Shown here: positions 32,338 through 35,827 of the stretch, piece after piece
Numbering within the stretch: the first letter of the stretch is position 1
Layout: every line of letters starts with the position of its first letter
From: an uncultured Ignavibacteriaceae bacterium
GTDB taxonomy: Bacteria; Bacteroidota; Ignavibacteria; Ignavibacteriales; Ignavibacteriaceae
Reading direction: 5' to 3'
Assembly: GCA_964613805.1 (NCBI GenBank)
Contig: CAZTJF010000004.1
Location: 51,070-115,069, forward strand
Length of the DNA: 64,000 bases
Program-made: the position numbers and the translations under genes
The notes under the pieces: generated by a model
Database searches by the model: none
Told to the model about the DNA's origin: nothing
What the model saw: the letters and a program-made list of their open reading frames with translations, nothing else

Positions 32338-33403
32338 AATTTTTGCGTTGTTACTATTTTTAAGTTCAGGGATTTCATTTCCTCAAAACACGCATAGACC
32401 CCAAAACATTATCATTCTTATTGGTGATGGAATGGGTGTTGGTTACGTCAGTACTGCGGTTCTTACAATTCCGAACAATCCTTTTCAAGAATTCAGTTCT
32501 GTCGGATTTTCAATTACCAAAGCCGCTAATAAGTTGATAACTGACTCTGCCCCCGGAGCTTCTGCCATTTCCACAGGTTACCGTATAAATTATTTATCTA
32601 TAGCTGTTGATACAAGCAGTTATCCTATTCAAACTATTTTTGATGAAGCAGAGAAACTTGGTCTTTCAACAGGAATGGTAGTAACAAGTTCAATCACTGA
32701 TGCAACCCCAGCAGCATTTGTTGCACATGTTAGTAACAGAAAAGAAGAAACAGAAATAGCTAAGCAATTTTTGAAAAAGAGGATTGAAGTTGTGATTGGC
32801 GGTGGGGAAGCATATTTCTCTGATTCGATTTTAATTGATTCGATGAGAAACGGTTTAGATATTTTGAAAGAAGATGGATATGAAATTTTCACAGATTTTG
32901 AAAATCTTAAGAGTAATCCACCGTCCTCCAATTTTTATGCACTTCTTGGGAAAAAGCACTTACCTAAAACAAGTGAAAGAGAATATTCTTTAACCGACCT
33001 CACCGAAATTGCTCTATCCCATTTATCAAAAAATGAGAGTGGTTTTGTGTTGATGGTTGAGGGTTCACAAATTGACTGGGGAGGACATAAAAACGACCAA
33101 GAATATATTCTATCTGAACTCACAGATTTCTGCGGGGCAATTACCACTGCCTTAAATTTTGCGAAGAATAATAATACATTAGTTTTAGTTACAGCAGATC
33201 ACGAAACCGGAGGTATGTCTATAACTGATGGTAAAATGGATGGTTCTGAACTAAAAATGAAATTCAATTCGACTGGTCATACTGCTGAATTAGTCGGAGT
33301 TTTTGCCAAAGGTCCTGGTGAGGAATTATTTCGTGGTGTATATGACAACTATATGATTGGTAGAAATTTATTTCATCTTCTCAATCCCGATTACAAATTC
33401 TGA
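32324..33403 (+). CDS. Alkaline phosphatase (PhoA family), secreted
   Basis: Signal peptide present. Motifs: IGDGMG, the active-site region TDSAPGASAISTG, ITDATPAAF, IDWGGH and TADHETGG. It has a TTG start that overlaps ilvE by 14 nt. Confidence 0.85.
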   Translation: MKFHKIFALLLFLSSGISFPQNTHRPQNIIILIGDGMGVGYVSTAVLTIPNNPFQEFSSVGFSITKAANKLITDSAPGASAISTGYRINYLSIAVDTSSYPIQTIFDEAEKLGLSTGMVVTSSITDATPAAFVAHVSNRKEETEIAKQFLKKRIEVVIGGGEAYFSDSILIDSMRNGLDILKEDGYEIFTDFENLKSNPPSSNFYALLGKKHLPKTSEREYSLTDLTEIALSHLSKNESGFVLMVEGSQIDWGGHKNDQEYILSELTDFCGAITTALNFAKNNNTLVLVTADHETGGMSITDGKMDGSELKMKFNSTGHTAELVGVFAKGPGEELFRGVYDNYMIGRNLFHLLNPDYKF

Positions 33404-33448
33404 ATTACTGAATTTCCGCTATCTTTTTTTACTTTTCAAAAAAATATC

Positions 33449-33488
33449 TTGACAAGTGTACTTATGTTCACTATATTTGTAGTGAACA
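33449..33488 (+). promoter_or_regulatory. lexA promoter with overlapping palindromic operator(s)
   Basis: TTGACA (33449-33454) lies 17 nt upstream of TATATT (33472-33477), and the latter is part of TATATTTG. A perfect 8-bp inverted repeat, TGTTCACT (33465-33472) and AGTGAACA (33481-33488), brackets the -10 element. An imperfect GTGTAC-N4-GTTCAC palindrome (33456-33471) lies in the spacer. Confidence 0.55.
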
Positions 33489-33501
33489 ATTGAACACATA
33501 T

Positions 33502-34149
33502 ATGAAAAACATACTTACTGATCGTCAAAAGGACATTTTGAACTTCATCGAAGAGTATCGAGGCGAGAATGGTTATCCGCCAACGCTAAGAGAAATTGGG
33601 AAAAGGTTTGAAATTTCATCTACATTTGGAGTTAAACGACACTTAGAAGCGTTGGTTAAAAAGGGTTATATAGCCGTAGAAAGCAATGCAAGCCGGGGAA
33701 TCTCATTTCTCAGGAATGAATTTGAGCCAACGGTTAATTCAAGTTTACGTTCCGAGAATCACTTTAGTAAAATCCCAATTGTAGGACGTGTCGCTGCCGG
33801 CACTCCAATACTTGCAATTGAGAATATTGAAGGGAGTTTAGTTGTCGATCCATCTTTCCTCAAGAAATCCGAAAATTATTTTGCTCTAAAAGTTAGAGGG
33901 GATAGTATGATTGAAGCCGGTATCTTTGATGGAGATTTTGTTATAGTATCATCGAGAAAAGAAGCATTTAATGGTGAAATTATTGTTGCAATGGTTGACG
34001 GTGAGGTTACTGTTAAAATATATGAAAAGAAATTTGGTCAAGTAAACTTAATTCCGCGCAACATAAATTATCAGCCAATTCCAGTAGATAGTAATTCTGA
34101 TTTTTCCATCCTTGGAAAAGTTTCAGGTGTAATTAGATTATTAAATTGA
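33502..34149 (+). CDS. lexA: LexA repressor (S24 peptidase)
   Basis: N-terminal wHTH (LTDRQKDILNFI ... PPTLREIGKRF ... HLEALVKKGYI), the Ala-Gly cleavage site (GRVAAGTP), catalytic Ser (RGDSM) and catalytic Lys (VTVKIY). I chose ATG 33502 rather than the TTG at 33490. Confidence 0.92.
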   Translation: MKNILTDRQKDILNFIEEYRGENGYPPTLREIGKRFEISSTFGVKRHLEALVKKGYIAVESNASRGISFLRNEFEPTVNSSLRSENHFSKIPIVGRVAAGTPILAIENIEGSLVVDPSFLKKSENYFALKVRGDSMIEAGIFDGDFVIVSSRKEAFNGEIIVAMVDGEVTVKIYEKKFGQVNLIPRNINYQPIPVDSNSDFSILGKVSGVIRLLN

Positions 34150-34159
34150 AAGAAATAAA

Positions 34160-34399
34160 ATGAAAACAAAAATATTTGCTGACGCAATAAGTAAACGAAA
34201 TCAAATTAAATTTTTATATGGTTTTGATGAAGTGGTGCTTGAGCCATATTATATTACCAAAGATAAGTCGGGTAAAAAAGTTATTTACGGCAGAGTTACA
34301 AACTCCAGTGAAGTAAAAAAATTTGAATACAGCTTAATTGCAAACATTAAAGTTTTTAATGACAGAAGATTTTCACCAAGAATTAGTATGGTTTCTTAA
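34160..34399 (+). CDS. Small WYL-like (Sm/SH3-fold) protein, function unknown
   Basis: 79 aa. The pattern IKFLYGFDEVVLEPYYITKDKSGKKVIYGRVTNSSEVKKFEYSLIANIKV resembles the WYL-domain consensus (x-Y ... EP ... G-x-x-Y-hydrophobic ... F-x-x-x-x-I). It lies 10 nt after the lexA stop. Confidence 0.4.
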   Translation: MKTKIFADAISKRNQIKFLYGFDEVVLEPYYITKDKSGKKVIYGRVTNSSEVKKFEYSLIANIKVFNDRRFSPRISMVS

Positions 34400-34425
34400 T
34401 TGTTTTTAAACAATCGAGGTATAAA

Positions 34426-34860
34426 ATGACTGAAATATTAAGAAGAAAGAATGTCGATTTGTTAGTCGAAGAATTTTGGAGAAAAGGTTACTTAACCTTA
34501 AGCAGAAAATTTGGAACGTATCTTCCCGAACCAACCTCTGTTGGAGGTTTTGAGGTGGATATTGTTGCCAGGCAGAAAAATAAATTTGCCATTGGCTTAA
34601 CTTTAAACGATGAGGATTTGAAAAATCAAGCTGCTCTATTAAATAAGATTAAATATTTAGCTACACGGCAAACTCGTCATGGTAATGTTCCCGTCATGCT
34701 TTTCATCGGAGTTAAAGACGAAAACTTCAAAACATTAAAATTACTGGTTGACCAGCTTGAAGAAGACGTTAGAAAAAATATAAAACTGATTCTGATTACA
34801 GAACATAGAACAGTAATTAGGAAAAGACATGAAGAAAAATCTATTCCGCTCTTTTCTTAA
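34426..34860 (+). CDS. Hypothetical protein, possible degenerate PD-(D/E)xK nuclease-like fold
   Basis: 144 aa. The segment EEFWRKGY ... VGGFEVDIVARQKNKFAIGL resembles the helix plus beta-hairpin core of restriction-endonuclease-fold proteins. No clean (D/E)xK motif is visible. It lies 26 nt after the previous gene. Confidence 0.3.
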   Translation: MTEILRRKNVDLLVEEFWRKGYLTLSRKFGTYLPEPTSVGGFEVDIVARQKNKFAIGLTLNDEDLKNQAALLNKIKYLATRQTRHGNVPVMLFIGVKDENFKTLKLLVDQLEEDVRKNIKLILITEHRTVIRKRHEEKSIPLFS

Positions 34861-35047
34861 GCATATAATTTGTTGGGGAGTAGATTGCGCTTCTCAAAAC
34901 ATATAGCTTTTTCCCTTTCATTATAAAATCTGCATTTATTATCTTTCATGTCGCAAACTGCTGTTTTGTGAACATTTACAATTGATTGTAAGTCTTAACA
35001 ACAGATAAGCAGCTTCATGCTTAAATTATTTCAAAGAAGGAGAATAT

Positions 35048-35827
35048 TTGAAAAGTTCTCGCAGCTCATCCGATGAGAGTATCCAGGCAGAACTTAAAAA
35101 GTCCGGCGAGATTCCAAAACATATTGCAATCATTATGGATGGAAATGGACGATGGGCAAAGAAAAGAGGATTACCACGCGCCGCCGGTCATACGCGGGGA
35201 GTTGAATCCGTTAGGGATATTGTTAAAGCATGCTCTAAATTAGGTGTAAGTTATTTAACATTGTATACTTTCTCGACTGAAAATTGGCGAAGACCAAGAG
35301 AAGAAGTTTCTATGCTTATGCGTCTTCTCCTAAAAAGTTTGAGGGATGAAACCGATGAGCTTAATCAGAATGATATTAAGATAACAATGATTGGTGAGCT
35401 TCATTCGCTGCCGGAAGAAGTTCAAAAAGAACTTGAAGATGCACGGGATAAAACCAAGGACAACAAGAAAATGGTTCTTAATTTGGCATTGAGTTACAGC
35501 GGGAGAGTTGAGATTTTAACCGCTATTAGAAAAATTGCCGACTCTGTCGCAAATAATAAATTAAAACCAGAATGTATAGACGAAACTATTATATCAGACC
35601 ATCTTATGACTAAGGATATGCCAGACCCTGATTTGGTTATTAGAACAAGCGGTGAATTTAGAGTGAGTAATTTCCTTTTATGGCAGATTGCCTATTCGGA
35701 GTTTTATATTTCAGATGTACTTTGGCCGGACTTCCGAAGAAACAATTTATATGATGCTATCAGAAGTTTTCAAAAAAGGGAACGAAGATTTGGCAAAGTC
35801 AGCGAACAAATAAAGAAAAAGGTGTAA
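35048..35827 (+). CDS. uppS: Undecaprenyl-diphosphate synthase (cis-prenyltransferase)
   Basis: HIAIIMDGNGRWAKKRGLPR, TLYTFSTENWRRP, DLVIRTSGEFRVSNFLLWQ and ERRFG motifs. TTG start. Confidence 0.9.
   Translation: MKSSRSSSDESIQAELKKSGEIPKHIAIIMDGNGRWAKKRGLPRAAGHTRGVESVRDIVKACSKLGVSYLTLYTFSTENWRRPREEVSMLMRLLLKSLRDETDELNQNDIKITMIGELHSLPEEVQKELEDARDKTKDNKKMVLNLALSYSGRVEILTAIRKIADSVANNKLKPECIDETIISDHLMTKDMPDPDLVIRTSGEFRVSNFLLWQIAYSEFYISDVLWPDFRRNNLYDAIRSFQKRERRFGKVSEQIKKKV

Follow-up and report, generated by a model that had tools for sequence, protein, structure and literature searches.

The lexA gene of an uncultured Ignavibacteriaceae bacterium from sludge is followed by two small open reading frames (ORFs), here called orf79 and orf144 after the number of amino acids (aa) in their products, and these three genes are the subject of this report. 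They lie in a 64,000-nucleotide (nt) stretch of contig CAZTJF010000004.1 (positions 51,070 to 115,069), referred to as the window, whose own numbering is used for all coordinates. We propose that the three genes are a single SOS operon, repressed by its own product LexA, through which two nucleic-acid-binding accessory proteins are supplied, and that this operon arose in, and is near-universal to, the order Ignavibacteriales. We put the probability of this reading at about 0.6. It is carried by the conserved linkage of the three genes, by the position of the predicted LexA operators and by the folds modelled for the two small proteins.

Linkage and predicted operators of the lexA locus

The locus comprises the following features.

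33449..33477, + strand: lexA promoter, TTGACA-17 nt-TATATT, agreeing with 11 of 12 consensus positions and the top site of the region
33455..33472, strand ".": LexA box 1, AGTGTACTTATGTTCACT, a predicted operator between the -35 and -10 elements, 22.3 bits
33481..33498, strand ".": LexA box 2, AGTGAACAATTGAACACA, a predicted operator lying after the -10 element and before the lexA start codon, 19.9 bits
33490..34149 as listed, + strand: lexA, encoding the self-cleaving repressor (TIGR00498; Pfam LexA_DNA_bind and Peptidase_S24)
34160..34399, + strand: orf79, 79 aa, a predicted stand-alone divergent WYL fold (AlphaFold, Foldseek, weak Pfam WYL matches)
34426..34860, + strand: orf144, 144 aa, a basic protein with a predicted PD-(D/E)xK fold lacking ExK (AlphaFold, Foldseek, hhalign)
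34861..35047, + strand: spacer of 187 nt before uppS, the probable end of the operon

Judged by its residues, the LexA of the window is a genuine repressor capable of self-cleavage. It scores 220 bits against TIGR00498 (E 2e-65; cut-off 111 bits), and the Ala103-Gly104 cleavage site, the Ser in GDSM and the Lys in VTVK are all present. The N-termini of homologues indicate that the true start of lexA is probably the ATG at 33502. A recA gene is found elsewhere in the same genome (527 bits). Behind lexA, gaps of 10 nt and 26 nt precede orf79 and orf144, respectively, and 187 nt separate orf144 from the start of uppS at 35048; the start of orf144 is preceded by a GAGG ribosome-binding site. The ORF sizes and gaps given in an earlier note on this DNA, which was made by eye from the letters, were reproduced from the ORF coordinates.

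Both small ORFs are real genes. A collection of 5.8 billion proteins contains 116 relatives of orf79 and 533 of orf144, and the sampled alignments (A1 for orf79 and A2 for orf144) each average 64% identity per column. The motifs that had drawn attention to the two proteins are among their most conserved positions, namely F18, Y20, P29, Y30, K40, Y43, G44 and F55 in orf79 and D45, A48 and G57 in orf144. No model in Pfam or NCBIfam names the window orf79 or orf144, nothing significant was returned for either by PADLOC and PHROGs, and searches of PDB sequences with the profiles of both proteins gave nothing significant. The earlier note had conceded that its reading would fall if the two proteins belonged to unrelated known families; none in Pfam, NCBIfam, PADLOC or PHROGs claims either of them. 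Rfam has no match in the region, including the 187-nt spacer.

The linkage of the three genes was examined in 52 loci from 52 genomes. lexA, orf79 and orf144 follow each other in the same order and on the same strand in 50 of these, with median gaps of 11 nt between lexA and orf79 and 13.5 nt between orf79 and orf144, and several of the ORFs overlap. Since uppS comes next in only 38 of the 52 loci, the trio is held together more tightly than the background synteny. A lack of conserved linkage to lexA, a further finding that would have told against the idea of an SOS operon, did not occur.

The layout of the promoter, TTGACA...TATATT with two palindromes, was present in all 12 of the first loci. 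The box consensus is the 18-nt palindrome AGTGAACATATGTTCACT, with the pattern GTGnnC-N4-GnnCAC, the core of which resembles the Cheo-type box GAAC-N4-GTTC. A position weight matrix built from these 12 loci was tested on 38 independent loci and found two boxes in 37 and a single box in the remaining one. The box-to-box spacing is 26 nt in the window and in most of the independent loci, and 26-31 nt overall. Beyond the lexA promoter, the matrix found no further box in the 38 independent loci, each of 5.5 kb. The sole candidate LexA operators in the loci are therefore those at the lexA promoter, which supports the SOS autoregulation suggested for the three genes.

Genome-wide (G000), only about six sites reach at least 18 bits, and the lexA boxes rank first and third among them. 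Second in rank is GGTGAACATTTGAACACT (20.5 bits), with a DnaE-like ORF beginning 6 nt downstream of it. DnaE-like genes are a classic type of SOS gene, and the position of this box supports the motif as a LexA operator. The DnaE-like ORF itself (contig C34, 9164-10869, minus strand, 560 aa) spans only the C-terminal half of DnaE/Pol III alpha (profile positions 586-1066 of 1146), with no ORF of at least 100 aa within 800 nt upstream. A DnaE2-like gene under LexA control may thus have been truncated or split here.

Besides the lexA promoter, no other strong promoter was found in the region, and the 10- and 26-nt gaps are too short to contain a strong internal promoter or terminator. With neither an operator nor a strong promoter to themselves, orf79 and orf144 should depend for their expression on the lexA promoter, which is autoregulated. 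In the spacer at 34861-35047 no matrix site reaches 12 bits, and a simple scan found no + strand terminator there. A half-site-like GTGAACATTT in this spacer was considered as a second LexA box and was rejected at less than 12 bits.

Public sequencing runs were also consulted. There were 24 RNA-labelled runs listed, four of which were mapped onto the region. The only run to cover the locus, X19, did so at a flat depth of about 3, with one of its contigs spanning 34083-34480; since the flat depth includes the region upstream of the promoter, X19 is probably DNA. About 20 metatranscriptome runs each contain 0.10-0.16 of the sampled words of 33400-35000. Three such runs were mapped: one gave nothing, and two gave only fragments of 40-90 nt, one over the promoter and the others at the edges of the stretch. 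These fragments probably stem from conserved regions of relatives and not from a small RNA. We infer that the trio is co-transcribed and that it is induced by damage.

Folds of the two small proteins

The AlphaFold model of orf79, computed on A1, has a mean predicted local distance difference test score (pLDDT) of 90 and a predicted template modelling score (pTM) of 0.77. It consists of a helix at residues 2-12 followed by five strands, and thus shows the Sm/SH3-like five-stranded barrel with a preceding helix that characterises WYL domains. When the model was compared with the PDB by Foldseek, the top 23 matches were all WYL domains at a probability of 1.00, with query-normalised template modelling (TM) scores of 0.70-0.80 and a root-mean-square deviation of 1.2-3.2 Å over 70-83 columns. 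The matches include PafBC (6sj9), BrxR (7qfz), DriD (7tzv, 8tp8, 9pfq and 9cu3) and CapW (7tb5, 7tb6 and 9c5g), with Tudor, Sm and Hfq folds ranking far below. By profile, the orf79 of the window has no match to Pfam WYL (PF13280; gathering threshold 21.8 bits) at E <= 1; 22 of 43 relatives do match, all below the threshold and at E 0.0011 at best. With the WYL model of PADLOC, E is 0.039, and one relative carries the label "YafY" in the JGI data. On its modelled structure, orf79 is a WYL fold. The same call had been made by eye for the 79-aa protein, and the Foldseek matches, the weak Pfam matches and the "YafY" label all agree with it. The 116 relatives are 47-103 aa in length, most of them 79-82 aa, and are single-domain proteins with neither a helix-turn-helix (HTH) nor a WCX domain fused.

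orf79 was aligned by MAFFT with the WYL segments of three proteins, namely PafC, CapW and a canonical WYL protein of 273 aa encoded in the same genome; at an identity of 13-16% this alignment is uncertain. It places A9, Y20, P29 and F55 of orf79 in common with the WYL set, while the W-Y-L triplet corresponds to K-V-I and the RxFRLDRI strand to KKFEYx(R)I. In DriD, single-stranded DNA (ssDNA) is contacted by Tyr168, Arg176/178, Tyr192, Lys202, Arg204, Trp206 and Arg207 (PMC9186387). Of these positions, orf79 seems to keep the aromatic and one or two of the basic ones, and seems not to keep the others. The family has a median isoelectric point (pI) of 10.1, and this, together with the conserved aromatic and basic residues, would fit a protein that binds ssDNA or another nucleic acid. 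Outside the barrel lies a strongly conserved tail, (K/R)FSP(I/V)IPI, which is found in f1, f2 and f3, all three of the families with orf79, and is modelled at a pLDDT of about 65; in the window it takes the variant form RFSPRISMVS (residues 69-79, 34364-34396). This tail resembles a peptide used for docking or for oligomerisation.

The model of orf144 (pLDDT 81; pTM 0.72) has the order alpha-beta-beta-beta-alpha-beta-alpha-beta, with a helix at residues 2-19, strands at 23-27, 46-50 and 53-59, a helix, a strand at 91-96, a further helix and a strand at 119-123. It contains the alpha-beta-beta-beta-alpha-beta core of the PD-(D/E)xK superfamily. The best Foldseek matches are the XisH structures 2inb and 2okf (E 3e-3, probability 0.99, TM 0.42-0.49), followed by Bax1, Cdn1/Card1, the R2 restriction-like endonuclease, MunI and EcoO109I. 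Among 41 relatives of orf144 there was no match to Pfam XisH (PF08814) at E <= 10.

A relationship at the level of sequence was found with a family that has an intact motif. P0288, the weakest significant match of the exhaustive A2 search described below, founds this family, termed A4, whose members are 126-131 aa long and share the invariant R-H-E-P-D-I-I-A ... G-E-A-K. The comparison of A2 with A4 by hhalign (97.1% probability, E 4.7e-11, 119 columns; 94.3% with a single sequence) indicates that orf144 is homologous to A4. In the alignment the invariant D45 of orf144 stands against the Asp of EPD, while L58-T59-L60 replace E-A-K, a site that is hydrophobic throughout the orf144 family (L/I-T-L/I). 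The alpha-1 Glu is also retained in orf144. As modelled, orf144 is thus a PD-(D/E)xK fold in which the metal-binding Asp is kept and the ExK is lost. This is what had been read from the GGFEVDIVA segment of the 144-aa protein, including the missing (D/E)xK, and model, Foldseek and hhalign concur.

The two families differ in charge, with a median pI of 9.7 for orf144 and 6.0 for A4, and in their surroundings. The named A4 proteins come from Patescibacteria and from a metagenome-assembled genome (MAG) labelled Acidoferrales, and in the nine A4 loci examined none lies next to lexA. Two operon types were seen. The first, a conserved one in the Patescibacteria-type loci L082, L083 and L085-L087, runs from an HTH controller through an N6/N4 methyltransferase and RE_CfrBI to the A4 protein and an unknown protein of 205-212 aa; in the second, an HTH gene and two unknown genes precede the A4 gene, which itself precedes an SDH (SppA-like) protease. 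Single A4 loci were found beside a ResIII helicase and beside a Pol-beta nucleotidyltransferase. The A4 genes look like uncharacterised accessories to restriction or abortive-infection systems. orf144 may go back to the capture of a small defence-island nuclease, which then gave up its canonical chemistry, acquired a basic pI and was fixed in the lexA operon as a DNA-binding component.

The C-terminal tail of orf144 (residues 124-144, 34795-34857) is lineage-specific and ends in LFS. In family f1 it is a variable basic linker with LFS at its end or [SD]LF within it (QLPSLFSEE, ESDLFV, PDLFF), whereas in families f3 and f27 orf144 stops right after the last strand, with no LFS or [SD]LF tail. 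The f1 tail resembles QL[SD]LF, a motif for binding to the beta sliding clamp.

Distribution and alternative readings

The exhaustive search of 1.84 billion representatives with profile A2 returned only 53 clusters, and the named relatives of both proteins are Ignavibacteria-type MAGs or are labelled Bacteroidota. Among 151 genomes across the class, orf79 and orf144 occur in the same 16 of the 17 genomes of the window's order and in none of the 134 genomes of other orders. At the lexA loci of those other orders, different genes follow, for example Y-family polymerases, and profiles A1 and A2 find nothing. A sample of 301 genomes of the phylum has orf79 only in the window's order, plus two marginal matches (E about 0.005) in 316-aa ORFs that are probably ordinary HTH-WYL regulators. 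Within the order, orf144 is single-copy in 117 of 121 genomes and 59 of 61 genera. Both families are confined to the order Ignavibacteriales and are order-specific inventions. The earlier note had called for a survey of gene neighbourhoods in Ignavibacteria and related phyla: conservation of the arrangement held within Ignavibacteriales and did not extend to the other orders sampled.

The exceptions within the order are as follows.

G015 (2.4 Mb): true lexA absent; orf79 absent; orf144 absent
G151 and G152 (family f27, 2.6 Mb): lexA absent; orf79 absent; orf144 present between unrelated genes
G230: lexA and an adjacent orf79 present; orf144 absent, with a heavy-metal-binding gene following orf79
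G153: lexA present; orf79 and orf144 absent

G015 has only a umuD-like gene, beside a Y-family polymerase. The one sampled genome of family f3 that is without true lexA lacks both small genes, in keeping with their linkage to lexA. In the sample orf79 was never found without lexA, orf144 does occur without it, and the two small genes are not an obligate pair. In the G230 locus (contig C379, L071), whose genome is placed in the same family, lexA is followed by a divergent orf79 and then by the heavy-metal-associated (MTCEHC) gene. The translated frames of the locus are rich in Arg, Ala and Gly, which suggests a G+C content well above that of the rest of the order as far as translations tell; the contig may have been misbinned, or it may represent a deep branch. 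An apparent 237-aa fusion of orf79 and orf144 (P0239, locus L028, a JGI contig of 1032 nt) depends entirely on reading TGA as Trp. P0239 was therefore taken to be a gene-calling artefact and rejected as Rosetta-stone evidence; it could mislead analyses of domain fusion.

The distribution bears directly on the alternative that survives best, in which orf79 would be a putative trans-acting sensor subunit of LexA, the regulator being split into an HTH part and a WYL part, and orf144 a separate effector. Here orf79 would bind ssDNA or a damage signal, dock on LexA or on RecA-LexA, and alter cleavage or operator occupancy. We consider this unlikely. It is true that orf79 is tied to lexA more closely than orf144 is, being absent from the genomes without true lexA (G015, G151 and G152) and retained beside lexA where orf144 is missing (G230). 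The 10-nt gap implies that orf79 is produced in step with LexA, and the FSPIIPI-type tail is highly conserved outside the barrel, as a docking motif would be. However, G153 has lexA without orf79, LexA has all the residues for ordinary RecA-stimulated self-cleavage, and the canonical ssDNA-contact residues are only partly kept in orf79. That the LexA switch of Ignavibacteriales acquired an in-trans WYL sensor acting on LexA or RecA-LexA, with orf144 as its DNA-targeting partner, is likewise unlikely; if true, two principles of damage sensing that are thought to be alternatives, RecA/LexA and WYL-ssDNA, would be merged in one operon.

The nuclease fold of orf144, with its Asp and alpha-1 Glu, invites the view that orf144 is an active nuclease or toxin induced by damage, a "last resort" endonuclease of the BapE type or half of a toxin-antitoxin or defence pair in which orf79 is the regulator or antitoxin. 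The nearest sequence relatives of orf144 do lie in restriction-modification and abortive-infection-like operons, and WYL domains often regulate defence, with BrxR and CapW among the Foldseek matches. Yet hydrophobic residues occupy the place of ExK across the whole family, and orf144 is a single-copy, order-wide gene in a fixed position rather than part of a variable island. Furthermore, either gene occurs without the other, and PADLOC and PHROGs gave no significant match, which leaves this view very doubtful. Just as poor a prospect is that orf79 and orf144 are housekeeping passengers of a lexA-x-y-uppS-bamA string with no role in SOS or an unrelated one such as division inhibition: local synteny is generally high in the order, with uppS following in 38 of 52 loci, and for orf144, which persists in f27 without lexA beside unrelated genes, the view stays open, but linkage to lexA (50 of 52) exceeds that to uppS, the gaps offer too little space for separate promoters and no second strong one was found, the WYL and PD-(D/E)xK folds are both tied to nucleic-acid metabolism, and neither protein has a membrane segment, as judged by reading the sequences with no dedicated predictor, while most SOS division inhibitors carry one.

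Proposed mechanism and comparison with known systems

The reading that we prefer, a LexA-autorepressed operon with two accessory proteins, would work as follows. Upon DNA damage, RecA-ssDNA would trigger the self-cleavage of LexA, and the operon would be derepressed so that orf79 and orf144 rise together with new LexA. orf79 would bind single-stranded nucleic acid, as do the WYL domains of DriD, PafBC and CapW, without an HTH output of its own. orf144, a domesticated and inactivated descendant of small defence-island nucleases on this proposal, would bind DNA, probably at gaps, at ends or at branched structures, and would not cleave it in the canonical way. Jointly or separately, the two would then be SOS accessory factors at sites of damage, where they may protect or mark ssDNA or tune the RecA/LexA switch. 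It is in this sense that we infer a sensor or effector function for the pair, and its induction by damage.

Several observations weigh against this proposal. The orf79 of the window falls under the Pfam WYL threshold; in the MAFFT alignment its W-Y-L triplet is K-V-I and Arg207 of DriD aligns with Glu56, and the ligand of orf79 may therefore not be ssDNA. The two palindromes are taken as LexA operators from their position and conservation only, and the sole run with the locus, X19, is probably DNA or in any case of flat, low depth. The retention of orf144 without lexA and orf79 in family f27 means that its role need not depend on SOS, and G230 has orf79 without orf144 while G153 has lexA alone. 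Some PD-(D/E)xK enzymes relocate their catalytic residues, and the loss of activity in orf144 is therefore unproven.

WYL domains have come to be seen as sensors of ssDNA, both in damage responses that do not involve LexA (DriD, PafBC) and in regulators of phage defence (CapW, BrxR). To our knowledge, the WYL domain in those regulators is always wired to an HTH of its own. Here a bare WYL barrel is predicted to be hard-wired into the LexA operon of a whole order, beside an apparently inactivated nuclease-fold protein. A search of the literature on WYL proteins with lexA or SOS and on LexA of Ignavibacteria found no description of such an operon, and in the literature searched no published SOS work on Ignavibacteriales was found. 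The WYL fold and the PD-(D/E)xK fold are each familiar, but a bare WYL barrel controlled by LexA was found nowhere in that literature, nor was there a published account of the order-wide coupling of a bare WYL domain to a nuclease fold without ExK. This suggests that the operon of this sludge bacterium, and of nearly all its order, is an undescribed SOS accessory module. For the LexA of Ignavibacteriales, the boxes would provide an operator motif and a core regulon for the first time. Should one of the two proteins modulate LexA or RecA, or mark DNA that is damaged, the SOS response would gain a new layer of accessory factors, and orf79 would also be a minimal system for studying how a lone WYL domain acts.

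Some of the features have parallels elsewhere. As a matter of general knowledge, lexA is likewise the first gene of a self-repressed operon in the lexA-dinF operon of E. coli, and DinI and RecX are small SOS modulators to which orf79 and orf144 may be likened by analogy in size and in their presumed sites of action on RecA and ssDNA; orf79 and orf144 have no relation in sequence or fold to DinF, DinI or RecX.

orf144 is like the A4 family in size and topology, whereas in A4 the triad is intact, the pI is acidic to neutral and the taxa are scattered. With XisH it shares a small single-domain restriction-endonuclease-like fold at an identity of only 13-14%, a likeness of structure only; XisH belongs to the excision of cyanobacterial elements together with XisI, whereas orf144 has no XisI partner. 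BapE of Caulobacter, to which orf144 is likened by description, is a damage-induced nuclease that is active, whereas orf144 is without ExK. The title of PDB entry 9pfq names the BapE promoter as a target of the WYL protein DriD.

The closest parallels to orf79 are DriD, PafBC, CapW and BrxR, with which it has the WYL barrel fold in common, and with DriD and PafBC it also shares the tie to a DNA-damage response. The WYL domain of DriD binds ssDNA (PMC9186387), CapW has been solved with ssDNA bound (PDB 9c5g), and PafBC is described as binding ssDNA (PMC11804915). These four are HTH-WYL-WCX transcription factors of 280-640 aa, whereas orf79, at 79 aa, is the barrel only. Furthermore, DriD and PafBC act independently of LexA, whereas orf79 is encoded inside the LexA operon itself.

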